A model generated the notes under the pieces. It had not been told where the DNA came from, did not search any database, and was given only the letters and a program-made list of their open reading frames with translations. 64,000 nucleotides of DNA from Leucoraja ocellata (taxonomy: Eukaryota). Positions within the stretch are counted from its first letter, which is position 1. The number at the start of each line of letters is the position of its first letter. Shown here piece by piece: positions 4,293-60,995 of this stretch. The stretch spans positions 4,030,001-4,094,000 of the forward strand of contig JAWMAR010000204.1 of assembly GCA_036785375.1 (NCBI GenBank), given 5' to 3'. Position numbers and translations under genes: made by a program.

Positions 4293-4404
4293 TCAAAATG
4301 TATCCGACTTTTCAGTTTTGGTCAGTAAGCCAATAATAAGCATCTTCACCCAGAGAGCCTTCCCACTCAAACAAACTTCTTTACGTGGGTTAATCTGATG
4401 AGCT
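4293..4404 (-). pseudogene. Orphan CXC chemokine exon 3 (copy D; promoter, exon 1 and exon 2 deleted)
   Basis: The minus strand reads tttcag|A..AHQINPRKEVCLSGKALWVKMLIIGLLTKTEKSDTF* (stop TAG changed to TCG). At ~4580-4590 intron-2 sequence is joined directly to far-upstream sequence, equivalent to deleting ~12690-14077 of copy A. Confidence 0.85.
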
Positions 4405-13134: not shown

Positions 13135-13270
13135 ACAAATTGCAACATTTCTGCTTATTATTAATTTGACTATCTTGATGTAATCAGTGTTTTCTGTTGC
13201 ACCAGTGACCAGTGGCCGTTGCAATTTCATTATATTGAGCAACCCCTAGTTATTCAGAATATAAATTACA
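13135..13270 (+). promoter_or_regulatory. Chemokine promoter: TATA box and C/EBP-like sites (repeated upstream of copies B and C)
   Basis: TATAAAT at 13260-13266, ~84 nt before the ATG. Also ATTGAGCAAC (13234-13243), TTGATGTAAT (13175-13184) and GTTGCAAT (13218-13225). Confidence 0.6.
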
Positions 13271-13343
13271 GAGCAAATAGAAGACACCAAGAAAAACCAA
13301 CTGGATCAGAAAGGCAAGGCTCGAGAAGACTGGAACTCCGACA

Positions 13344-14351
13344 ATGAACTACAGAGTTAGTGCTACACTCCTGCTGCTGCTTGGAATTTGTGCAGCTTTG
13401 TCTATGGGTGAGGAAAATACCCTAGATCTTGTCATTTAGAGTCTTTTAGCTTTATAGTTGTAATTAGATTTTTGATTCATTCAGCCAGTTGAAGGAACAG
13501 AAGACAGTTCAACGAATGTTCACTTGGATAATATTAGATATGGATTGTCTTATAATAAATGGATGAAGCGGGTGGGTCTGTACTCATTGTAATTTTAAAA
13601 ATGAGCGGTGATCACACTGAAACATAGAATCCTGAGTGGGTTTGGCAGGTTCTGATTCAAAGACAGTGTGTGTTTTCCAGGTTGTTCTATTTGATGTTCA
13701 GGCTTGCAGGTTACTATGTGTCCAGATGGAACTTGATGTTTCCTTCCTCGGTCTTAGAATAGGCCTTGTTGTAACAGCGCAGAAGGCCAAAGAAGGGGCC
13801 ACATTGTGAACACTGAAAGTAATAAAACTAATTTTAAGGAATATGTCTTTACAACTTGTCATTTGTCTTACAGCGGCTCATAAAGATATCAATTTAGGAT
13901 CACGATGTAGGTGCAGTACGTGTTCAACAAATCGCATGTCCGTGGGTAATATTCATAAAATTGAAATCATCGCAGCGAACAAAGAGTGCAATTACGCGGC
14001 AATCATGTAAGAATTGTTCATGCATTTAAATTTTCATGTTTATATTTCAATGGGTGGGATTCGTGATAATGTGGAGAAATTGTATGAATTGCATTTTATC
14101 GGCAGATCATCTGCCACAAGTGAAAGGAACAAACAAGAGAACTCTGACAATTAAATGATGTTGCAATTTATCCCCCCTCCTCCCCCCCTTCCCCCATCCC
14201 CTCAAAAATTCTAATAACTAGAAAGATAAAATGCCTCCCTTTTCCTTTCAGAGCTCATCAGATTAACCCACGTAAAGAAGTTTGTTTGAGTGGGAAGGCT
14301 GACTGGGTGAAGACGCTTATTATTGGCTTACTGGCCAAAACTGCACAGTAG
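13344..14351 (+). CDS. CXC chemokine copy A (intact, ELR-negative, 98 aa); exons 13344-13407, 13874-14006, 14252-14351
   Basis: Translation: MNYRVSATLLLLLGICAALSM-AAHKDINLGSRCRCSTCSTNRMSVGNIHKIEIIAANKECNYAAII-AHQINPRKEVCLSGKADWVKTLIIGLLAKTAQ*. It has a signal peptide, R-CxC, IxKIEII..C, VCL....WVK and GT-AG introns of phase 1 and 2, as in CXCL genes. A TATA box lies upstream and AATAAA downstream. Confidence 0.92.
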
Positions 14352-14451: not shown

Positions 14452-14493
14452 AATAAAAAGGATTGTATCTCTGATAATGATTTAAGCATTAAA
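14452..14493 (+). terminator. Candidate polyadenylation signals of chemokine copy A (AATAAA 14452, ATTAAA 14488)
   Basis: Hexamers 100-140 nt after the stop codon, present in all four copies. Confidence 0.5.
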
Positions 14494-19550: not shown

Positions 19551-21881
19551 AAGCTGGGATCCATCCTGATAAAATGTTTTCTTGTCATCACAATTCCCTT
19601 TAAGTATTACTGAATGATTTTAAATTGTGAGAATTCTGCTCAATATAATGTCCCTGCCCTCGTTCACCAATGATAGAGTACAAATTGTGGTGGTGACCCC
19701 ATGAGTTAGCACTCAAACTGTTTTTGATTTCACAACAATTAGAACAGGTTGTTGCACAACATTTCACAACCTGTATTCATGGCCCACCCTTCTCATGAGT
19801 TTATCTCCATCTTTAATATGTTTATTTGATCTCCATGGTCAAATCTTGCATCAAAGCAGACTGTACATTGAATATTACTGTCCTCTCAGTAATTTGCAGT
19901 CTTTCAGTAATTATCAGCACTCGGCTCCTTAGTTCACTCAGCGCTACTATCTGGAAAAAAACAACAAATATTTGTGAGTTGATCCTCTATTATTCTACAT
20001 AATTAAGTGGAGAAAGAGCATGAAATGAGCTGTAATCCCGGCCCCATTTACTTTGCATACAGTAGGCTGGTTGGTTGCTCCTGGATACACACAGTTTACA
20101 TCACTGGAGCAATGTCTTAATCTGTTCATCTATCAATGTTTATATCAGCGTGCAATTAGTGCTCCACTTATTAAGTTCTTAATTAGTGGTCGCAGACCAG
20201 TCCATCACACAATCCAATATCTATTCCATTGGCCCTATCTAAATTTCATGCAGCCTTGGCAAAGCCACCGGCATAATTAAGGACGAGTCTCACTCCAGAC
20301 ATTCCCTCTTCTCCCATCAGCGATACAAGATACAAGATACATTAATTTGTCACATGTGCCAGTTGGCACAGTGAAATGTGTTCACCGTACAGCCATACAA
20401 TACAAATAAAGAACACAACACACGATAGAGTTCAACATAAAACATCCCCACACAGCAGAATCAAAGTTTCCCAGTTTGAGGGAAGGTACCAAAGTCAGTC
20501 TCTCCTCTAATGTTCCCCAATGTTCACCCGTGGTCAGGGCCTCCCCGAGCCTTCCGCAGACGCCGCTACGGGCGGCCCGATGTTCAGGCTCGCTTGCCGG
20601 GGTGATGTAAGTCCGGCGTCGGGGCTGGGGGACCTCCTCAGTGGCTTGGACATCATAGTCGGCCACCTCCTACCGGAGTCCACGGCTCCCAAAGTCCGGA
20701 GGCCGTGCCGGGCGGAGATTCAACGCTGGCGGCCCTCGGCAAAAGGCCCCAGGACTCCGCGATATTGAAGTCAACGCCGCCCGCTCTGGGAGCTCTCCCA
20801 AACCGCTGCTCCACGATGTTGGAGCAGCGGCGTAACACTCCGGAGCTCCAAACGGCGTTCCAGGTAGGCATCGCCCGCTCTGCGGTGAATTTAGCGCTGC
20901 CCCGCCGCTGTTGAAGCTCTGGTCCAGTTCCTGCTTATTGTAACTTTAAAACAATGAGAGCTCATCACACTGAAACATAAACATCCTGAGGGGGTTTGGC
21001 AGCCGTGTGTTGGAAAAATGATCCTGCTTGTAGTAAAGTCTGGGACCAAAACACACCAACGCAGAATAAGGTGGAGATGTCATTTATGAATGAGACAAGG
21101 AAGAATATCTTCCCTCAATTCAGATTCAGATTCAGATTCAATTTTAATTGTCATTGTCAGTGTACAGTACAGAGACAACGAAATGCATTAATACATCAAA
21201 TATCGGTGACTTATCTGAATCCCTTATCCCAGGAAAGGGCTGAATTTTTGAATATATTTCAAAGTGGAGAAAATGTATGTTCTGTAAAAGAATCGAGTGT
21301 AATGGGACAGGGTGGGAGAGCAGATTTGGAACGTTGTATTAGCCATGGTTTTATTGAGCATGAGAGAGGCTCAAGTGCTGAATGGCCTGCTCCTGTTCCA
21401 ATTTCCTACCGTCTCCGTCACACCATTAACTTGTTTTCAGCTTCTTTTTTTAAAAACAAACTGTCTATTTTGATATAATCTACAAATTGCAACATTTCTG
21501 CTTATTATTAATTTGACTATCTTGATGTAATCAGTGTTTTCTGTTGCACCCGTGACCAGTGGCCGTTGCAATTTCATTATACTGAGCAACCCCTAGTTAT
21601 TCAGAATATAAATTACAGAGCAAATAGAAGACACCAAGAAAAACCAACTGGATCAGAAAGGCAAGGCTCGAGAAGACTGGAACTCCGACAATGAACTACA
21701 GAGTTAGTGCTACACTCCTGCTGCTGCTTGGAATTTGTGCAGCTTTGTCTATGGTGAGGAAAATACCCTAGATCTTGTCATTTAGAGTCTTTTAGCTTTA
21801 TAGTTGTAATTAGATTTTTGATTCATTCAGCCAGTTGAAGGAACAGAAGACAGTTCACCGAATGTTGACTTGGATAATATT

Positions 21882-23876
21882 AGATGGCGGACTGCGGGGG
21901 TGATGCGCCGTTGTGTATGGCTGCTCCTCCTGCGGTCCGTCCTTTCTCCCTTTTTTTTTAAATTTATTTTTAGTCCAATTCCTCCCTCTCCCTCCCTACC
22001 TCCTCCTCTTAATCCCCCCCACTCTCTCTCCTCACCTCCCCGGGATCGCGATGTAGGCCACCGCCAGCTCCGTTTTCTCCACAACGTCGGGGATTGAGTT
22101 GTGCTTGAGGTCGGGGGGGGGGGGGGAGGCTGAGCGGCCTGGAGCCGCGGGGGGGGGGGAGGCTGAGCGGCCTGGAGCCGCGGGGGGGGGGGAGGGAGGC
22201 TGAGCGGCCTGGAGCCGCGGGGGGGGGGGAGGGGAGGCTGAGCGGCCTGGAGCCGCGGGGGGGGGGGGGGGGAGGCTGAGCGGCCTGGAGCCGCGGGGGG
22301 GGGAGGCTGAGCGGCCTGGAGCCGCGGGGGGGGGAGGCTGAGCGGCCTGGAGCCGCGGGGGGGGAGGCCTGAGCGGCATGGAGCCGCGGGGGGGGGGGGG
22401 GGGGGGGGAGGCTGAGCGGCATGGAGCCGCGGGGGGGGGGGGGGGGGAGGCTGAGCGGCCTGGAGCCGCTGGGGGGGGGGGGGGGGGAGGCTGAGCGGCC
22501 TGGAGCCGCGGGGGGGGGGGGGGGAGGCTGAGCGGCATGGAGCCCGCGGGGGGGGGAGGGGAGGCTGAGCGGCCTGGAGCCGCTGGGGGGGGGGGGGGGG
22601 GGAGGCTGGAGCGCTGGGCCGCGGGGGGGGGGGGGGGGGAGGCTGAGCGGCCTGGAGCCGGGGAGGCCGAGACTGCGGCCTAGTCCTTGCCCCGGGTCCC
22701 GCTCCTCTCCCTTCCCGTGGGCCAGGTGCGGCAGCGGCCGCCGCCCCCAGACCTCGCCCCAGCCTCATCGCCGTGGTGATTTCGGGTCCACACACGCGGA
22801 TGCCGGGCCCACGCAAGGGGCGACTTTCAGTTGTTTTTGGATCTGCACGCGTGGATACCCTCAGTCACTTCCTCCCACCCTCCATTAACCCCTCTCCCCT
22901 CCCTACCTCCCTCCTCTCCCTCTATCCCCCTTCTCCCCTTATCTCCCTTCTCTAAGATGGCGGACTGCGGGGGTGATGCGCTGTTGTGTATGGCTGCTCC
23001 TCCTGCAGTCCGTCCTTTCTCCCTTTTTTTTTATTTTTGTTTTTAGTCCTGTCTGTGGGAACTTTTAATTGGAAGTCTTCTTTTCTGTGGTGGGTGGGGG
23101 GGGGGGGAAGGGGGAAACTGTTTTGATCCCAGTCCTACCTGGTCGGAGATGCGGTTTTCTTCCGGACCGCTTCTTCGTCCTCTCTGTGCGGCCTACCATC
23201 GAGCTGGAGCAGTGCTGGAGCGACGATTTCCTGCCGGGACTACAGCTTCGCCGGCGGTGCAGATGCTGGGACACCAACACCAACACGGAGCGGGCGATGG
23301 CTTACCGGATCGCCTTCGGGTAAGCTCCGGGGCACTGGGAACGCCGACTGCAACATCGCTGAGCTGCGGCTGCAGAGCGTCCAGCCGCGGGCGGGTGGCC
23401 CAGGATTTTAACACCACGGGGCCTGGTGTCCGAGTTCGCCAATGTCAGCGGTCCAGCCAGCGCGGCCTGAGAACTTTGGACATTGCAGTCTTCAGGGAGG
23501 AAGTGGCCGCTTCAGTCCAGGCCGCTGAAGAATGTTCACCCGACGCCGATGATCCAGCTTCGCGGCAGAGGGCCTGAGAAAATCGAGTTGGCTGAGGAGG
23601 CCACATATAGACCCCGACCTCGGGTGGACTATGAGGGGGAGAGCTGGATATTTTTAGTGCCTTCCTCACAGTGAATTCTGCTGTGGGGGGACGTTTCATG
23701 TTGATTTCTATAGTGTACTGTTCTGTGTCTTTTTCTTTTTCTCTTTTTTGTTTTTGTATATATTGACATTTGGTCTGTTCTATTAATTTAATCAAACTCT
23801 GTAAAGCACTTGGTTCAAATACTGGTTTTGTTGAAAAGTGCTATATAAATAAAGATTATTATTATTATTATTATTA
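21882..23876 (+). mobile_element. ~2 kb GC-rich non-autonomous retroelement in intron 1 of chemokine copy B
   Basis: Absent from copies A and C at the site GATAATATT|AGATATGG. It starts AGATGGCGG, its ~90-nt head is repeated at 22955, and it ends AATAAA plus (TTA)n. Confidence 0.8.
22112..22665 (+). repeat. G-rich minisatellite (Gn-AGGCTGAGCGGCCTGGAGCCGC), roughly 16 units
   Basis: Directly visible tandem repeat with variable poly-G spacers. Confidence 0.95.
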
Positions 23877-25469
23877 GATATGGATTGTCTTATAATAAAT
23901 GGATGAAGCGGGTGGGTCTGTACTCATTGTAATTTTTAAAATGAGCAGTGATCACACTGAAACATAGAATCCTGAGTGGGTTTGGCAGGTTCTGGTTCAA
24001 AGACAGTGTGTGTTTTCCAGGTTGTTCTATTGGATGTTCAGGCTTGCAGGTTACTATGTGTCCAGATGGAACTTGATGTATCCTTCCTCGGTCTTAGAAT
24101 AGGCCTTGTTGTAACAGCGCAGAAGGCCAAAGAAGGGGCCACATTGTGAACACTGAAAGTAATAAAACGAATTTTTAAGAAATATGTCTTTACAACTTGT
24201 CATCTGTTTTACAGCGGCTCATAAAGATATCAATTTAGGATCACGATGTAGGTGCAGTAAGTTTCAACAAATCGCATGTCCGTGGATAATATTCATAAAA
24301 TTGAATCTTCACCGTGAGCAGAAAGTGCAATTACGTGGAAATCATGTAAGAATTGTTCATGCATTTAAATTTTCATGTTTATATTTCAATGGGTGGGATT
24401 CGTGATAATGTGGAGAAATTGTATGAATTGCATTTTATCGGCAGATCATCTGCCACAAGTGAAAGGAACAAACAAGAGAACTCTGACAATTAAATGATGT
24501 TGCAATTTATCCCCCTCCTCCCCCCCCTTCCCCCATCCCCTCAAAAATTCTAATAACTAGAAAGATAAAATGCCTCCCTTTTTCTTTCAGAGCTCATCAG
24601 ATTAACCCACGTAAAGAAGTTTGTTTGAGTGGGAAGGCTCTCTGGGTGAAGACGCTTATTATTGGCTTACTGACCAAAACTGCACAGTAGGATACATTTT
24701 GAAGGGCTTCATTGCCACAATGGTATCCTGAGGTGATGAAACAGGTTTTATACCTACAAATGTTTTTTTGGTGAAGTGATTTTAATTCTAAATAAAAAGG
24801 ATTGTATCTCTGATATGATTTAAGCATTAAATACATGGCATTCTAAAATGTATTTGTCTGTTCCTAAATATAATGCCAAATCTTCTATCTCTTCCCTATA
24901 AGGTAAAGTCTCCAATATTAACTCATAGAATGAGGTTGACAGCAGATCATTCCGCACAAATGTCTTTGCTGGTTATGTATAAGTGATATTCAAGTATTCA
25001 GGTATTTTCAAAGCCAGGCAAATTTCTCTGCTTTGATAGTTCTTCCAACTAACTCTTTATTGAAAGTTACCATCAAATCTGCTTCCATTGCCTTTTCAGA
25101 GAGAAACTCCAGATTAACAGCTCTTTTCCTTGTGTTTCTTCTGCAAATTTCTCCACATCCGTGCCCTCTAGTCACTGATGCTTTAGCCACGAGCAACACT
25201 TTCATCGTCCTTCCTCCATTTTATATTTCATGATATACTGGATATTGGATATACAGTATGCTTCAAATCTCACCTTCACTCCACCTCTGCCCTGTTAAAT
25301 AAACCAAGCTTTTCTCAATAAAATAGAGATTCCAGAAACATGGCTTCATTCTTGTAGATCAGCTTTGTGGGACTTTGATTTTTGGACGTAATTTGGTGCC
25401 AAGAACTGGAAGGATTACATCAGCTAGAAACCTATGAAAGGTTTATCATAATTCCTCGTTATTTTTAAA

Positions 25470-34777: not shown

Positions 34778-35790
34778 ATGAACTACAGAGTTAGTGCTAC
34801 ACTCCTGCTGCTGCTTGGAATTTGTGCAGCTTTGTCTATGGGTGAGGAAAATATCCTAGATCTTGTCATTTAGAGTCTTTTAGCTTTATAGTTGTAATTA
34901 GATTTTTGATTCATTCAGCCAGTTGAAGGAACAGAAGACAGTTCAACGAATGTTCACTTGGATAATATTAGATATGGATTGTCTTATAATAAATGGATGA
35001 AGCGGGTGGGTCTGTACTCATTGTAATTTTAAAAATGAGCGGTGATCACACTGAAACATAGAATCCTGAGTGGGTTTGGCAGGTTCTGATTCAAAGACAG
35101 TGTGTGTTTTCCAGGTTGTTCTATTTGATGTTCAGGCTTGCAGGTTACTATGTGTCCAGATGGAACTTGATGTTTCCTTCCTCGGTCTTAGAATAGGCCT
35201 TGTTGTAACAGCGCAGAAGGCCAAAGAAGGGGCCACATTGTGAACACTGAAAGTAATAAAACTAATTTTAAGGAATATGTCTTTACAACTTGTCATTTGT
35301 CTTACAGCGGCTCATAAAAATATCAATTTAGGATCACGATGTAGGTGCAGTACGTGTTCAACAAATCGCATGTCCGTGGGTAATATTCATAAAATTGAAA
35401 TCATCGCAGCGAACAAAGAGTGCAATTACGCGGCAATCATGTAAGAATTGTTCATGCATTTGAATTTTCATGTTTATATTTCAATGGGTGGGATTCGTGA
35501 TAATGTGGAGAAATTGTATGAATTGCATTTTATCGGCAGATCATCTGCCACAAGTGAAAGGAACAAACAAGAGAACTCTGACAATTAAATGATGTTGCAA
35601 TTTATCCCCCCTCCCCCCCCCCCCCCTTCCCCCATCCCCTCAAAAAATTCTAATAACTAGAAAGATAAAATGCCTCCCTTTTTCTTTCAGAGCTCATCAG
35701 ATTAACCCACGTAAAGAAGTTTGTTTGAGTGGGAAGGCTGACTGGGTGAAGACGCTTATTAGTGGCTTACTGGCCAAAACTGCACAGTAG
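34778..35790 (+). CDS. CXC chemokine copy C (intact, 98 aa); exons 34778-34841, 35308-35440, 35691-35790
   Basis: Same structure as copy A. It differs by two codons seen by eye (GAT>AAT D>N in exon 2; ATT>AGT I>S in exon 3). Splice sites are intact. Confidence 0.92.
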
Positions 35791-52372: not shown

Positions 52373-55300
52373 ATGAAGAACAAACAAGTACTGAAGCCTT
52401 TTGCAGCAATTCTGCTTTTCACAATTCTTGCAGCAGGTGTGGTGTTTAATTATGACATTTTTCATTGTTCAATGTGATGCGTAAATATTTCCTGTTTTCT
52501 TGGCAATAGAAATCTCAAAAGTATAAAAACTAAAAAATAATGAAGAAGTTTTCTTCCTAAATAATGAGAAGCAACAAGAATGAGTTGACTGTTTGTGGAG
52601 ACAGTGGTACAAGCCTAGATTAGACTAGATGTGAATTGATTTGTGGACTGTACGAGCACTAGAGCGGCACAGTGGTGCAGCTGGTAGAGCTGCTGCCTCA
52701 CAACACCAGGTTCGATCCTGACCTTGGGTGCTGTCTGTGTGGTGTTTGCACGTTCTTTCTGCGATCGCTCGGATTTCCTCGCTGTGTTCTGGTTTTCCCC
52801 CACATTCCAAAGACGTGCGGGTTTGTAGGTTAATTTGCCTCTGTAACTTGTCCCTAATGTGTAGAGAGTGGATGAGAAAGTGGGATAACATAGAACGTGT
52901 GATAGTCGATATATCGATGGTCAGCATGGACTCGAAAGGCTGAAGGGCCTGTTTCCATGGTATATCGTATACTCATGCAGTCTCTTTGCAGATGAATATG
53001 ATCACCTCCGCATGCAGCGGTCCCAGTGAATTATGAATGATAACATTGTTCTTGCTGTGTATCCCGTGGCCATGAATGTGCATCTTTGGCATATCTTGAC
53101 TTTTTTTAAATAGAAGTTACTAATTGTGTAATTCCTCCCAAACCTGAGCACCCACTTAAAATGAGTTTCTGCTACAGAGGTTTTAGTTTCTACTCACCAT
53201 AAATTAACTCCAGATTACCGGTAGTTCCAATGTCAATCTGTAACACATGGACCTGAAGAAAGGGAATATTAATTCCCAACTCATCAATTGAGGAGCTCGG
53301 ATTCTTTATTTCCATTTAGTTATTTAAGCAAAGTGTCATAACAGGTCCTAAAGCATCCCATACTGATATCCATACCCAAGCAGATAGGACACTGCTATAT
53401 TGGGCCTCCTTGACTATTAATTAAGACTTTTAGAAATAAATAAAACAAAAATAAACTAAAAAACTTAATGAAAAGATTTAAAATTCAAGTAAAATGCAAT
53501 TGTTGAATATAAATGTATAAATAAATGGTCAGATTCACAAAAGGTTATTACAATTTTTAAAATCACATATAAAGCAAATTTAAAAACTGTTCTGTTTCCT
53601 AAAACTCTACTACATTTCAAAGACTCCAAAATACATTATTTCATGAATTAATTCAAATGAACTAATAAATGAGTGTTAACTTTGATGATACGTGCAATTT
53701 TTTTCATGTTCTTGCATTTATTACTTGACTACCCTCTACCTCAACCCGATCAATGCGAGTTGAACCTGGTGCCGAACGCATACTCACTGCCAAAAACGAG
53801 ACATTTACGTTTCTAACGCCAGCCATTATAATACTATTTTTGAATAAGATAACCACATCTTTGCTCAGAGCGACGTCAGGAGTGCATGTTAAGTAATAAA
53901 TGGAAGAAATTGAAAAAAGAATCGCAAGCATCACCAAGGTTAAAACCAAAAATCTAATTTTTAATATAAATGCATTTTGAAAAATAACACTACTAGGGAA
54001 GATCTATCTGGTAAAAGATACCAGTGAGATTGTATTGAACACTAAGTGAACGGAGCACTTTTGAAATTAATATCTTATATCCCGAGGGAAATAAAATATC
54101 AACGACACAAAACAAAACGCAAATCAAAGGAAAATTGAATGAATGTAAATGGTAAAAGCTAAAGGAAAAACATAATGGATTTTTGGTAAATAAATCTTCA
54201 AGGCATGATGATTTTCACTGTAGGAATTTTTTTTAAATCTTAAGTATTGTAAAATAATTTATATCATTTTTCAGAGCTCTGCTATCACCACATTATTTTA
54301 GATGAGATAAACCAGATAACCACAAATCCGTCGGCTTAGATATTATTCCGGTCCCCATGTTTGTGATGAATGTTTATGGCATGTTGGTGGGCCAGCACTC
54401 ATCTGCCAGAAGGTACAGAGATCTGTGAAACAGAGTGACTGAGCAACTACAGTTCACATTCTATGTCCATTTAGATATCATGTCAAATCTCCACACTCGT
54501 ACTTGCTACATCGCTGGGTAGCAATGTTGGTTGTGATGAGGGTGCAGAGGCTTCAGGAAAACAGGCAGGAACTGATTGTGGCAACATGTACATTTGTACA
54601 CTTTGGTAGAAAAAATTGAAAGGTAGCGTCTTTTTAAGTAATTAAAGATTGAATGACGTGATAGAGGAATCTGCGTGACCATTTACATGAATTACTAAAA
54701 GATAGCATGCAGGCACAACATGTCTTGAGTTATGTTGGCTTTTATTGCAAGAGGATTCGAGTACAAAAATACAAATGGCTTAAACAATTATCTAGGTTTA
54801 CTGAGGCTGCATTTAAAATATTGTGTACATAGAAACATAGAAAATAGTTGCAGGAGGAGGCCATTCGGCCCTTCAAGCCAGCACAGCCATTCATTGTGAT
54901 CATGGCTGATCGTCCCCTATCAATAACCCGTGCCTGCCTTCTCCCCATATCCCTTGACTCCACTAGCCCCTAGAGCTCTATCTAACTCTCTCTTAAATAC
55001 ATCCAGTGGTTTGGCCTCCACTGCCCTCTGTGGCAGGGAATTCCATAAATACATTCATACATACAAACATCAGGAGAAGTATAAAGAACAGGGGAGAGAC
55101 AAGACTTTGCCTTCCATCACAGTGAGGAGGTGTTTGGAGATTCAATGTGATGGATGTTTGTGTAAATTGTGTTAATTGTGTGTCTTGTTTTTTTTTTCTT
55201 CTTCGTACAACTGCAGAAACGACATTTTGTTTGAACTTAGGTTCAAACGCCAATAAACGGTATTTTATCTTATCTTATCTTACCTTATAGTTTTTTTTCT

Positions 55301-58300
55301 GTACTCGCAAGCCAATTAACAGATACGTTCAATTTGCGCCTGGATTTGCTGGACATTGTAACTTCCACACTTATTATAAATGCTACTGATTCAGAAAGCT
55401 AATAACCATGTCTATTTTCTTACAGCTGATGCTGAAAGCCACCTTCTAGTTAAATCAGAATGTAAATGCATGACTGTCACAGCCAAAACAGTTGTTTCTG
55501 CATTGCCTAATGGCGAACCTGTGGAGCAGCTCATGAGGGATATACACATTGTGTAAGTAAATGCATTTTTACATGTCAACTAGACCAAGTGCAGACCCGT
55601 TGGGTCTGTTTTCCCAAAGCGCATTTGCAAGGGGGGGGGGGGTCAATGTACCCACATGGTTGAAAACAAGAAAAGACTAATTATTGGAGACTGTAGGCAT
55701 TTTTGTGCTGCGGTTCATCCAATCCTTATCACTAAAAGGAGGCAATCAATATACATGTCAGAGTCAGACCATCTTCTTCCTTCGTGTGGCGTGTACAGCC
55801 TAAAGTTGTTGAACAACTTGTTCTATTTGATTTTCCATTTGTGTACGTCGAGTCGATTGCATTAGTCGAAACAGGGCGGACCACGTGAAGGTTGCAATCT
55901 TCCACCCCAGAGTCAGACCATAACACAACCCCTAACAACCATTCTGATTCCTTGCTTGAGTTATTTCCTGCTTGCTCTGTATTCCCCGAAGGCCCTGTCT
56001 GATTTCATCTTCCTGAACCTTACATATGTTTCCTTTTACTTTTTGACCAAATTTAAAACGTCTCTTATCACCCAAGGCTCTCTTCCTTTGCCATCTTTCT
56101 CCCTCCTCCTTGCTGGAACATGCTGATCCTCAACTCTGATTAACTCTGATACTTTTTAGCTAAATACCAAATATCTGATGTGGACTTCTCCATAAATGCT
56201 GCTCCCAATATGCTCTCCGAAGCTCCTGCCGAATAATGTTATACTCTGCTTTATCCAAATTTAGTACTTTTGTCAATTGGTCCAGATTTTTCCCTCTTCA
56301 TAACTATCTTAAAACTTATGGAGTTGTGATCACAGTTCCTAAAATGTTCTTCCACAGAAACACCTGACCAGGTTCATTTCCCAATACAGGTCCAGTATGG
56401 TCCCTCCACTAGTTGAACAATCCACAAATTGGTTCAAGAAACCCTTTTGGATGCACCTTACAAATTCTGCCCTGTCCTAATCTTTTGCACTAAGGAAATC
56501 CCAGTCAATATTGGGGAAGTTAAATTCACTCATTATAACACCACCATTAATATTGACTCTTCCCACAGTCTATCTACATATCTGTCCCTCTATCTCCTGC
56601 TGGCTATTGTGAGGACTATAGTATAATCCCATCAGAGTGATTGCAGGTTTCTTATTTTTGAGCTTTCCTCATATTACCTCAGTGGATGAGCCCTCTGTGC
56701 CTTCTCTGAGTGCCACTGTGACATTCTCCCTGATTAGTAATGCAAATCCTCCGCCTCTTTACCTCCCTCTCTATTACGTCTGAAACATTAAAACTCTGAA
56801 AACATTGTGCTGTCAGTCCTGTCCCTCTCGCAACCAAGTCTCCATAATGGCCACAACATTATAGTTCCATGCCACTACGAGATGAATTACCCTGACATGC
56901 TCCAATTATTCATGTTGGTGCATATTTCTCTAAATAAAGTGAACACTGTCGCTGCACAAAGATAAACATTGAAAATAGTGGTATCCATAGTGAAGATTGC
57001 CACAGAGAACTGACCATGTCTTCACTGAATGAAGAGTTATGCCCTGTCCCACTTAGCAAACCTGAACGGAAACCTCTGGAGACTTTGCGCCCCACCCAAG
57101 GTTTCCGTGTGGTTCCCAGAGGTTTTTGTCAGTCTCCCTACCTGCTTCCACTACCTGCAACCTCCGGCAACCACCTGCAACCTCCGGGAACCGCACGGAA
57201 ACCTTGGGTGGGGCGCAAAGTCTCCAGAGGTTTCCCGTTCAGGTTTCCTAAGTGGGACAGGGGCATAAGCTGTTGTTTTGTTTGCTGGGCGGGCAATTCA
57301 TAGAAAAAGTAGTAGGGGTGGCACAGTAGTAGAGTTGCTGCCTTACAGCGCCAGTGACCTGCATTCCATCCTGATTACGGGTGCTCACTCTGTGGAGTTT
57401 GTACGTTCTCCCTGTGACCACGTGGGTTTTCTCCAGGTGCTCTGGTTTCCCCTCACACTCCAAAGTTGTACAGGTTTGTAAATTTAATTGCCTTCCGTAT
57501 GTTGTACAAAAATTGTCACTAATATGTAGGATATTGTTAATATAGTATATGGGGAGATCGGCGGTTGGCACGGACTCGGTGGGCTGAAGGGCCTGTTTTC
57601 TAAAGTAATGTCTAGTGACTATAAGAAGTACTAGGCTATGGAAAAGAATAGATGTATCTAATCATCTGTGAAAGACCAATCCATCCCTGAATGTCCTAAC
57701 ATAATGCAATACCTTTCCATTTCATTATGTGAAAGACAACTTCCTGGAATAATTTCCAAGAGATAATGAATTTACAAGCTGAATTAAAAAGTTCACTGCA
57801 TATTATTTTCTGGAGCAACCTTATATCATCCAAAACCAACTCAGTTTCAACTTGGTATAGTCTTTATACTGGGTGAGGTTTGCTATTTAACGTGTACAAT
57901 CATTATGCAGGATGCTGTTCTTTTCTATTGCTACAGTAATTACTACTTAGCCATAGGCAATAATCTTCAAATGATTATTTTAATTCTTGACTTTCTTCCT
58001 TCAATTACTGATATTGCCTACTCACATCTACAATGGTTGGACAATCACAGCTGTCCATGCTGTCAGCTGAAAGGTCTCCATGTGCAGAATGACTTCATGG
58101 CATTTGGCTGCCAATTTCTGGCAATGTTAAAATGGGTCTTAATTGTTCTTTTATTGCAGAGTTCCCACGAGGAGCAGAGAGAACCTTTCAGATCCAACCT
58201 CCCCTCTTCGGAGCAAGTTTGTCTACAAAATTTCAGATTTGTATGATTTATATTTTTATCTCTTTTTTTGTGCAATTTATAATTAGAGCAGGTTTCAGAA

Positions 58301-60995
58301 CACAGCCTACACCTGACATCTGGGAAATAGATCTGGTATTCAAATTTTAATACGTGGTGTAATTCGCAACAACAGCTACAATCAGGCCTCCTTGAGCCAT
58401 TTCTGAATATTCAGCAACAACTGAATAACTCAGGCTGAACGGTGGTGTCATTAGTAGAGCGGCTGTCTTCTGCTCCTGTGATCTTAGCCCCAGACCTCGG
58501 CTGCTGTTTCATGGAGTTTGTACTATTTCTCTGTGACTATGTGGGATCCTGAATATTCTGGTTTCCTCCACGTTTATAAATCATGAAGGTTGGCGGGTTA
58601 CCAGGCCATTCTCTATCACCGCTAATGTGTAGATGAGTGGTAGAATCTGAGGAAACGTTAATCGTGAATGTGGGGAGAATAAAACGAATTAGTGTTAAAT
58701 AATTAGGATTCGTGTTAAATCGGATGCATGATGGTTTGCTGCTGACTAGGTGAGCCAACAGACCCATCTCCCTGCTGTTTTTCAATATGACTCCATCATT
58801 GTATGAAAGCTTCAGTTGGACATTTTGGCAAAAAGGAGATCTAAAGGTATATTCAGAATAGTTTTAGTTTTTAATATTGCCAGAAGAACCATCTTCGCAG
58901 ATAAGTGAACGGGTAAAATAGTCAAAACAACTGAGTAAATCAGCAGAAAAAGACACAAAATGCAGGAGTAACGCAGCGGGTCAGGCAGCATCTCTGGAGA
59001 ACGTGGATGTGATGTTTCGGGTCAGGAGCCTTCTGCAGACCTCCTTGTATCTACAAGGAAATGAGCAGAATGTTTACATATCGAGGGTTATTCAGATTTG
59101 TGATACATCATTATACATAATGTGAAAGAGCAACTTCCAATAACAATAGAAACTATATTTAAAGAGGACTCATTTGCAGAGTTTGGGAGAAAAAGCTGGA
59201 AGTGGGTATGAACTTCACATTTATGTTGAGACACCACAAACATGGCAGTCTGAATGATTTCCAATGTTCCAAAGTTGTGCTCAATGGCATATTGACAATG
59301 GTGAAAGGACAACAAAATAAGTGGTGATATGTGGTTTAGATTAAAACCAGAATGTACCTAACAGTTCATGTTCTCATGGCTCAGATATAACTGATGGAAG
59401 TTTCCTTTAAATGCATAAAGGGATCTTTTATTTATTTGATAAATAGTTCCAAGACAATTCTCTGTCATGTTTTCATTCATGTTGCGTTGGTTTGACGGAT
59501 CGACTTCAAGTGAAATGATAGGGAACACCTATATTTACACAGTTAAATATTTTTATGGCTTTCTTCCAATGTAAGTATGAAGGACCCTTGGTTGACGTGG
59601 GATATTGAGGCATTGGAAAGGAAAATGGAGGCATATTTCAGGGATAGGCATCTGGGATCAAGTGAGTCCCTTGAGGAGTATAAGAGATGTAGGGCTATAC
59701 TGAAGAAGGAAATCAGGAGGGCAAGAAGAGGAACTCCTGAATAGTAAGTTTGTGGACTACATCAATATTGGTGATGTAGTGGATAATGAAGACAGTTATC
59801 TAAGATGACAACAGGAGTTGGATGAATTGGGGGAGGAATATAGTAAATATAATGCTATTTGATATAATAAATCAAATAGTACTTTATCTCTGAGGGGACC
59901 GTTCTCCTCTAAATGATATTAATGTGAGAACTCTTTGCATTAAATGTAACAAAAAATGTTTTGAACTACAAAAAATATTAAACTTTAGAATACCTGCAGG
60001 ATACATAGATGGCCAAAGGGAATTGCAGATGGAATTTCTTAAGGAATTGCAGATGGAATTTAACTTTGACAAGTGCCTATTGCAAGTTAAACCTGGGCAT
60101 GATGTACACAGTGAATGGTAGGACCCTGGAGAGTATTGTAGAATGCAGGGGCTTAGAGTTACATGTGCATTGTTCCCTGAAAGTGGCAACACAGATAGAA
60201 AGGGGGGGGGGGTGGGGGGGGGGGGGGGGGGATGAAGAAGGTGCTTGGCACACTTCTCTTCATTGGTTCGGGGCTATTTCCATTGACTATAGCAATGTGG
60301 ACATCATGTCACAGTTGTAAAAGTGGTGGTGAGACCACACTTGGTGTTCTCCGTGCAGTCCTGCTCGCCAAGCTACAGGAAATATGTCATCAATCTGATA
60401 AGGGGATAGAAGAGATTTATGGGGATGTAACAGGAATTGGAGGGCTTGAGTTACAAAGAGAGGCGAAATGGGCTGGGATTTTGACCCCTGGATTGTCGGA
60501 GGTAGAGTGGAGACCTTATAGAGGTGTATGTGATCAGGAGGAGTGTGAAGAAAGTGGATGGTCACAGCATATTCCCAGAGCAGGGATTCTAAAACTAGAG
60601 AGCATAGATTTAAGGTGAGGGGGGGAGGATTTCAAGGTATAATTTTCATCCATGTAGATGGTGATGGGCTTAGAGAACGAGCTACCAGAATGAGTTGTAG
60701 AGGTTGATATAGTTACAATGTTTAAAAACATTTGGACAGATAAGTGGATAGAAAAGATTCAGAGGGATAGAGGAAACTGGGCTAGCTCAGTTTGACATGT
60801 TGGTCAGCATGGGGGAGTTGGCATATTTCTGTGCGGCATAGCTCTATGACTGTGTTAATGAGAAATATATATTTGATTGATTGTATATTTTGTTGCAGCT
60901 GCAAGAATTGCAACCAAAAGCCAACTTTACCTGAAGAGCCCCAATGCAAACCCCCACCTCCCCCTGCAGACACCTGCTACGGCCGTGACATCTAG
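52373..60995 (+). CDS. JCHAIN: Immunoglobulin J chain; coding exons 52373-52436, 55426-55552, 58160-58240, 60899-60995 (64+127+81+97 nt = 122 aa + stop)
   Basis: Spliced translation with GT-AG introns (phases 1,2,2): MKNKQVLKPFAAILLFTILAA-ADAESHLLVKSECKCMTVTAKTVVSALPNGEPVEQLMRDIHIV-VPTRSRENLSDPTSPLRSKFVYKISDF-CKNCNQKPTLPEEPQCKPPPPPADTCYGRDI*. It contains the J-chain hallmarks CKC, RENxSDPTSPLR (N-glycosylation block), FVY, CKxC and TCY, plus a hydrophobic signal peptide. Confidence 0.95.
52662..52962 (+). mobile_element. V-SINE in JCHAIN intron 1
   Basis: tRNA-like head GGCACAGTGGTGCAGCTGGTAG, B-box GGTTCGATCC and V-domain. Confidence 0.8.
54826..55285. mobile_element. CR1 3' end (-, 54826-55050) abutting a retroelement tail (+, 55050-55285, (TTATC)n)
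   Basis: CR1 3'UTR motifs; tail module shared with 9840-10008. Confidence 0.7.
55580..55645 (-). mobile_element. Helitron 3' terminus in JCHAIN intron 2
   Basis: CTAGACCAAGTGCAGACCCGTTGGGTCTG is the reverse complement of the termini at 29809 and 30412. Confidence 0.7.
57040..57265. mobile_element. PIF/Harbinger-like MITE in JCHAIN intron 2
   Basis: Long TIRs TGCCCTGTCCCACTTAG...CCTCTGGAGACTTTGCGCCCCACCCAAGGTTTCCGTG; TTA/TAA flanks. Confidence 0.85.
57315..57600 (+). mobile_element. V-SINE (a more decayed copy lies at ~58435-58785)
   Basis: Head and V-domain as in other copies. Confidence 0.75.
59570..60850 (+). mobile_element. Old degenerate CR1 fragments in JCHAIN intron 3
   Basis: WQMEFNxDKC-like and VRPHL-like remnants; CR1 3'UTR remnant just before exon 4. 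Confidence 0.65.

Follow-up and report, generated by a model that had tools for sequence, protein, structure and literature searches.

A five-cysteine CXC chemokine gene from a JCHAIN-linked array in the skate Leucoraja ocellata

A three-exon CXC chemokine gene with an added cysteine

The window analysed here is a stretch of 64,000 nucleotides from Leucoraja ocellata (assembly GCA_036785375.1, contig JAWMAR010000204.1, positions 4,030,001–4,094,000 of the forward strand), and positions below count from its first letter. It holds an array of CXC chemokine genes and JCHAIN. In this array, copies A and C are each an intact CXC chemokine gene of three exons whose mature product contains five cysteines. 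The spliced open reading frame of copy A (forward strand) comprises 64, 133 and 100 nt with introns in phases 1 and 2: coding exon 1 (13344–13407) encodes the signal peptide and ends in a phase-1 donor, exon 2 (13874–14006) contains CxC, the extra cysteine and the third canonical cysteine, and exon 3 (14252–14351), which runs to the stop codon with no coding exon 4 after it, supplies the fourth cysteine and a helix with Trp-Val. The predicted mature protein (cleavage probably after Met21) is basic (pI 9.4) and has cysteines at positions 12, 14, 17, 39 and 56, of which 12, 14, 39 and 56 are the CxC pair and the third and fourth cysteines at canonical CXC chemokine spacing. The additional cysteine, three residues after CxC (CxC+3), is encoded by TGT at 13921–13923 within a CRCSTC motif that begins at 13906; exon-2 copies with this codon are referred to as the Cys class, and those with TTT (Phe) as the Phe class. 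A TATA-like box (13260–13265, forward strand) and a candidate polyadenylation signal, AATAAA (14452–14457, forward strand), are sequence matches only; X20, a spliced contig described below, starts at 13290.

Exon 2 aligned to CXCL8 without gaps by profile and, taken alone, matched Pfam IL8 (PF00048) at an E value of 0.0034, below the curated cut-off; in a Pfam scan of exons 2 and 3, IL8 was the only match at E values up to 1, and the J-chain family (PF15097) gave none. A word-based protein search with exon 2 returned no candidate among proteins of 78–2,000 aa, and the Phe-class exon 2 as a single query sequence had no match in the PDB, although the profile did match CXCL8. Copy A resembles CXCL8 (IL-8; PF00048) in its four canonically spaced cysteines, gap-free exon 2, helical Trp-Val and basic charge, and differs from it in having no ELR, Gly-Pro, Glu38 or CLxP proline and in the added cysteine. 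With GSR in place of ELR before CxC and Ala at Glu38, it falls outside the ELR+ CXCL8 type; AANKEC, AII and CLSG are likewise found in copy A.

Intact and broken copies

Copy C (34778–35790, forward strand; exons 34778–34841, 35308–35440 and 35691–35790) is a second intact Cys-class gene, with its extra cysteine codon at 35355–35357. The earlier note, made from the letters of this stretch, had ascribed five mature cysteines to both copies, with the extra one at CxC+3, together with GSR, AANKEC, AII and CLSG; all are present in both. It had also read phenylalanine at this site in a restored copy B, which agrees with the TTT at the aligned codon there and with the phenylalanine of L006 and L007, two intact Phe-class paralogues outside the window. 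Copy B itself (21691–24690, forward strand; exons 21691–21753, 24215–24345 and from 24591) is a Phe-class pseudogene in which three single-base deletions (one at the end of exon 1 and two in exon 2) lead to an early stop. Its intron 1 (21754–24214) is enlarged to 2,461 nt, about 2 kb longer than that of copy A, and is GC-rich (63% at 22–24 kb) with internal repeats at 22.1–22.7 kb. Copy D (4293–4404, reverse strand) is a remnant with exon 3 alone, and no match to exon 1 or 2 was found for it within the window. The surrounding sequence (1–41700) contains blocks of 1–6 kb duplicated at 93–98% identity in both orientations as well as many copies of dispersed repeats some 0.7 kb long.

A DNA search of the animal's own genome yielded nine exon-2 copies (all nine candidates). 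Five carry the cysteine (three on contig C204 and two on contig C54) and all five have open frames; four carry phenylalanine, two of them open and two frameshifted. C54 is probably the other haplotype, because on either contig some 23 kb separate JCHAIN from the copy closest to it; the seven exon-2 copies on C204 and two on C54, which are lower bounds, suggest a large copy-number difference between haplotypes. The distant Phe-class copy L007 (C204, 3.43 Mb) has an exon 1 identical to that of copy A and an exon 3 that diverges strongly (18 of 94 bases, with two added codons).

Codon support and splicing

X3, a DNA contig of another sample with a depth of 99.6, keeps the extra cysteine codon unchanged. 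X17, a Cys-class contig from another study's run (depth 2.7), skips both introns at GT..AG with the codon again unchanged and three other letters in exon 2. X20, a Phe-class contig that also comes from another study's run (depth 8.8; 14 other letters), is spliced at both introns at GT..AG as well. The joints in both contigs are 13406/13873 and 14006/14252, and these joints, not the RNA status of the runs, which is a guess, are the basis for transcription. Both classes are transcribed, the Cys class on the basis of one contig at the depth given.

The extra cysteine is real and not a read error, because it occurs in five copies on two contigs, in X3 and in the spliced X17 from another study. Single-base indels in two array copies had lent some colour to a sequencing or assembly error, an explanation raised in the earlier note that is now refuted and retains practically no probability. 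In X17, three altered bases at 13944–13946 match none of the nine genomic copies, in a single contig of low depth. X3 joins a Cys-class half to a Phe-class second half; we rejected a true recombinant, as 43 identical bases separate the blocks and collapsed paralogues can yield such a contig. Among the differences listed for contigs of two other organisms, that of organism C appears to read Val at the extra-cysteine codon, and that of organism B has Cys-class letters at 13969–13984.

Two classes of exon 2

Between the classes, exon 2 diverges by 10.0% (20 pairs) versus 0% in exon 1 and 1.6–3.8% in the non-coding flanks, and the excess over the flanks was significant in all four pairs tested (Fisher P = 4 × 10−7 to 4 × 10−4). 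Within the Cys class, exon 2 differs by 0.9% and the flanks by 1.4–3.4%. A typical between-class pair has 13 nonsynonymous differences and one synonymous difference, and the between-class pN/pS of 3.2 is not significant alone (Fisher P = 0.18). Eleven amino acids define the classes, Phe to Cys being one of them, and by alignment to CXCL8 the differences are located in the N-loop, the end of strand 1, the 30s loop and Glu38. Given that four of the seven clade relatives described below have Tyr at CxC+3, an aromatic residue altered by a single base change is the likely source of the cysteine. The divergence of exon 2 from its flanks suggests selection on the exon-2 block as a whole and would fit the maintenance of two ligand types whose flanks undergo conversion; selection on the cysteine itself goes beyond this evidence.

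These data also bear on whether the Cys class might consist of recent duplicates under relaxed constraint, transcribed but drifting, with the cysteine and the loss of Glu38 as early decay. Rapid turnover of the array (two of nine exon-2 copies frameshifted, one exon-3 remnant, seven copies on C204 versus two on C54), the non-significant pN/pS excess and the reliance of Cys-class transcription on a single contig of depth 2.7 would all be compatible with such drift. The broken copies, however, are both Phe class, while all five Cys-class copies are open and less divergent in exon 2 than in their flanks; drift would not pack 14 changes into one exon and none into exon 1; and the Cys-class letters at 13969–13984 recur in the organism B contig. 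We consider decay of this kind unlikely.

An elasmobranch CXCL clade beside JCHAIN

Profile searches and accession look-ups identified seven relatives, from Pristis, Leucoraja, Rhinoraja (two), Hypanus, Mobula and Heptranchias, two of which are three-exon genes of Dataset S1 in PMC10801876. In sawfish and little skate, that dataset has cxcl genes of three exons next to jchain, and one of the sawfish genes (XP_051901471.1) bears the remark '3 exons, extra C'. The jchain-adjacent batoid genes (Pristis pectinata XP_051900710.1 and XP_051901471.1; Leucoraja erinacea XP_055496674.1; PMC10801876) have the same exon sizes (64/133/~100) and phases (1–2) as copy A and, like it, have no coding exon 4, lie 5' of jchain and carry no ELR, GP or CLxP proline. 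A C-terminal SDTF is common to the sawfish protein and four of the seven intact copies here; copy A is only 35–43% identical to its four closest jchain-adjacent batoid relatives.

In a tree of 46 rows, the copy A gene grouped with the sawfish and skate three-exon proteins (support 99/91), as it did when the sawfish protein was left out (95/91; 35 rows), and the clade was placed among CXCL8-like proteins; these trees are midpoint-rooted with long branches, leave the order within the clade unresolved and omit CXCL13 and cluster-B rows. One paralogue lies 0.03 changes per site from an Amblyraja protein. As judged from sequence, the gene is a member of a fast-evolving, three-exon, JCHAIN-linked elasmobranch CXCL clade. 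CXCL13 orthology, considered on account of the xSR motif and the 133-nt exon 2, seemed less probable in view of the gene's position, number of exons and exon-1 length. Folding of the sawfish orthologue with a nine-row alignment gave three strands and a helix, with pLDDT of 84–91 over the core, and the best PDB match of this model in Foldseek was IL-8 (E = 5 × 10−6, TM 0.84).

Most of the motif losses belong to the clade at large. None of the seven relatives has ELR, Gly-Pro before the third cysteine (Pro alone in one) or the CLxP proline, and ELR is found in no chondrichthyan row of parts 1–3 of 4 of Dataset S1 (PMC10801876). Intact four-cysteine Phe-class paralogues likewise have GSR and CLSG and no GP, and six of the seven relatives retain a second proline, five residues before the third cysteine, that both classes here have lost. 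All seven relatives and the Phe class retain Glu38, which only the Cys class replaces with Ala (copy A codon at 13999–14001, forward strand), the sole listed motif loss specific to that class; some skate, sawfish and elephant shark genes of Dataset S1 have Asn or Ala in this column (PMC10801876). Because the ELR, GP and CLxP-proline losses are common to the clade and the Phe class, only Glu38 to Ala travels with the cysteine, so the motif losses that the earlier note attached to the intact copies are present there, and it was their link to the extra cysteine that was overstated. Neither cysteine at CxC+3 nor Ala at Glu38 occurs in any of the seven database clade members; among 262 retrieved proteins, none has cysteine at CxC+3, 252 keep Glu38 and 239 keep the CLxP proline.

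Predicted location of the fifth cysteine

In the gap-free exon 2 alignment, the extra cysteine corresponds to CXCL8 Thr12, a receptor site-I contact that touches E25 and D26 of the receptor in the CXCL8–CXCR1 site-I structure (10.1101/2020.07.28.225664). According to the same source, the receptor is also contacted by Lys11, by Phe21, which lines the groove, by the 40s turn and by Glu38; Lys11 and Arg47 make up an ionic cluster, and Glu38 hydrogen-bonds to the CxC backbone at Gln8. Lys11 is a site-I residue in PMC10336096 as well. Since the Thr12 equivalent contacts the receptor in CXCL8, the fifth cysteine is predicted to lie on the receptor-binding face, where a partner could reach it. By count of cysteines, it would be unpaired. 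The CXC dimer is assembled through strand 1, not the N-loop (PMC5666770), and a symmetric bond within the usual dimer is unlikely for a cysteine outside strand 1. Loss of Glu38, otherwise kept in all seven relatives, may loosen the CxC region of the Cys class.

Candidate receptors

Of the 65 receptor-like matches from a search of the genome, 30 were read. Nine CXCR1/2-like loci (L120, L122–L124 and L126–L130) are located on contig C373 at 0.97–1.21 Mb, and one of these receptors was compared with the PDB, in which CXCR2 and CXCR1 were closest (E = 3 × 10−92). Seven of the nine, one of them frameshifted, make up a divergent group, and the other two belong to the usual type. Members of the divergent group have near-identical transmembrane parts and variable extracellular parts, with Lys replacing two TM5 arginines of the usual type and a cysteine within TM5. 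The N-terminus is readable in eight C373 receptors; each of these has one conserved N-terminal cysteine and one in ECL3, and none of the eight has a spare N-terminal cysteine (small upstream exons excluded); a receptor with a matching unpaired N-terminal cysteine was not found among the 30 of 65 loci. A ligand family that is diversifying could plausibly find its receptors in the C373 expansion, which shows no sign of covalent pairing.

Recurrence of extra cysteines

An extra core cysteine is present in three of the seven clade relatives: at the Lys11 site in Mobula P0268, which has a further N-terminal cysteine and six in all; at the Phe21 site in Rhinoraja P0269; and in a lengthened 40s turn in Rhinoraja P0248. 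With Thr12 these make four clade sites, all of which map to the site-I face by alignment. Among other CXC representatives of similar core divergence (42% identity), only 2 of 138 scorable proteins (of 142) have an extra core cysteine (P = 7 × 10−4), a background that rises to 8 of 138 (P = 0.01) when nine upstream residues are counted; closer IL-8-like proteins have none in 119 (of 120). Cysteine accounts for 2.6% of one-step replacements in exon 2, and by mutation alone 17–29% of series of 7–13 replacements there would be expected to include one. The excess in the clade implies weaker removal of free thiols, or selection for them. In P0268 (Mobula hypostoma), the extra cysteines, near the mature N-terminus and at CxC+2, could pair together.

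A sister CXCL family in this genome shares the Phe21-site cysteine with Rhinoraja P0269 in 4 of the 12 loci inspected, and two of the four are identical across contigs. This family (L067–L074, L078, L086, L094 and L098; C204, 3.46–3.99 Mb and C54, 3.75–4.28 Mb) is a three-exon CXCL with an acidic N-terminus, up to 86% identical to a Leucoraja protein, with mean pN of 0.156 and pS of 0.140 over 36 pairs.

Six-cysteine CC chemokines add an even number of cysteines, read as an extra intrachain bond. Lamprey cxcl (two or four extra cysteines; PMC10801876 Dataset S2) and HCMV vCXCL1 GT4 (an even number, with stated extra intrachain bonds; PMC8939814) are read in the same way, whereas one cysteine is added here. 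Zebrafish CX chemokines lose one canonical cysteine and add three (PMC2416438), in contrast to the complete set plus one of copy A. In the literature searched, from which subscription journals mostly fell outside, we found no account of the odd cysteines of this clade beyond the remark in Dataset S1 of PMC10801876. Extra cysteines on chemokines are already known; what appears to be new here is an odd cysteine at CxC+3 on a complete four-cysteine set.

Such recurrence raises the question of whether the unpaired thiol itself has been selected, as a free cysteine on the rim of the site-I groove that could serve a covalent or redox-sensitive link: a homodimer, attachment to a protein of mucus or serum, or disulfide exchange with a bound partner. 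The four different clade positions, all at site I by alignment, the Phe21-site cysteine common to two skates and the sawfish three-exon gene marked 'extra C' (PMC10801876 Dataset S1) would agree with this, and engineered N-loop cysteines of CXCL12 cross-link efficiently to receptor cysteines (PMC7173943). Yet none of the eight readable C373 receptors offers a partner cysteine (small upstream exons excluded), the same loops vary more than any other part of the fold, a single step from an aromatic residue accounts for two of the four gains, four-cysteine classes persist beside the five-cysteine classes with the Phe class transcribed, and the contrast with other chemokines weakens against the wider background of 8 in 138 (P = 0.01). 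We hold selection for the thiol as a tentative, minority reading.

JCHAIN and the comparison with J chain

JCHAIN exons 2–4 lie at 55426–55552, 58160–58240 and 60899–60995 on the forward strand, exon 3 matching Pfam Ig_J_chain (PF15097; E = 1.4 × 10−9), and a candidate exon 1 at 52373–52436 (forward strand) is unconfirmed. The CXCL family stands directly 5' of JCHAIN in the same orientation on both contigs, with the nearest copy about 23 kb away; JCHAIN of the second contig is at C54:3701140. The window's J chain has cysteines at 13, 15, 71, 74, 86 and 96 and Val at CxC+3; exon 3 contains no cysteine, and exon 2 has none where chemokines carry the third. Its exon 4 is short (97 nt to the stop) and, with six cysteines in the protein, CKC is kept; Dataset S1 notes CKL in the sharks it lists (PMC10801876).

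J chain and chemokines have a common origin (PMC10801876), and J chain bonds immunoglobulin tailpieces through Cys14, the second cysteine of CxC, and Cys68 (PMC6963396). The earlier note had drawn from this relationship a possible parallel between the extra cysteine and the chemokine-to-J-chain transition. Part of its footing holds: the cysteine is real, unpaired by count, transcribed and aligned with a receptor contact of CXCL8, JCHAIN is in the window, and extra cysteines are unusually common in the clade. Linkage, the same first two intron phases and CxC in exon 2 are further likenesses. It is the specific parallel that finds no support, as J chain has Val at CxC+3, has lost the third and fourth chemokine cysteines and has gained a long cysteine-rich exon 4, whereas copy A keeps all four canonical cysteines and ends in exon 3 with no coding exon 4. 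On these comparisons the parallel is weak.

A second transition of this type would require bonding to immunoglobulin tailpieces, for example through a Cys17–Cys56 bond that frees Cys14. Besides the position and shared orientation of the family relative to JCHAIN, it could draw on the use of the second CxC cysteine by J chain (PMC6963396), on the loss, together with the gain of the new cysteine, of Glu38, a hydrogen-bonder of the CxC backbone in CXCL8, and on a strand bridge that the orthologue model places at the residue after the extra cysteine. Disulfide reshuffling of this kind, with Glu38 loss helping, is speculation, and would be the sole mechanistic bridge left. In addition to the differences from J chain just described, an intact JCHAIN is present, bridging two heavy chains needs two free cysteines and this protein has one, and the clade lies among CXCL8-like proteins with a predicted chemokine fold for the orthologue. 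A second transition is thus very improbable, and for the cysteine gains across the clade, fast ligand diversification is more likely than a second route to J chain.

Discussion

The explanation that we favour, with modest confidence, is that copy A encodes a spliced five-cysteine CXC chemokine, a diversified secreted ligand for expanded CXCR1/2-like receptors, in which the fifth cysteine is a retuning replacement. The protein would likely act as a ligand for the expanded receptors of this genome, with its canonical cysteines pairing as usual (12–39 and 14–56). Cys17 would be a one-base replacement of an aromatic residue in the N-loop groove that binds the receptor N-terminus, likely one of several replacements retuning the receptor-binding face, and would be tolerated, partly buried or capped by a small thiol, rather than being the purpose of the protein. 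The splicing of both classes, the 10.0% divergence of exon 2 set against its flanks and the expanded C373 receptors support this ligand-diversification reading. The same divergence pattern would, however, also arise if an old exon-2 block stood between flanks homogenized by gene conversion, and selection explains extra core cysteines in 3 of 7 relatives versus 2 of 138 representatives better than mere tolerance does.

A bolder view is that this JCHAIN-adjacent clade has repeatedly been selected for free cysteines on the groove rim, giving covalently tethering or redox-switched chemokines; in copy A, disulfide reshuffling through the new cysteine and the loss of Glu38 could free the second CxC cysteine. 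We regard this as doubtful, a shade more so than selection for the thiol as such; the narrower claim that the protein binds IgM is highly unlikely.

Secreted chemokines rarely keep an odd core cysteine (2 of 138 representatives here), and a clade that repeatedly does so beside the sole known co-opted chemokine allows a direct test of how covalent partners could be acquired, a matter that PMC10801876 leaves open for chemokines. Matched four- and five-cysteine classes in one genome, both transcribed, mean that one comparison, Cys to Ser or Cys to Phe, would be informative. If the thiol is merely tolerated, there is still a clear expansion of ligands and receptors in this skate, mainly of interest to comparative immunologists. 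If free cysteines have indeed been selected, the family would be a living model of the first step in chemokine co-option.
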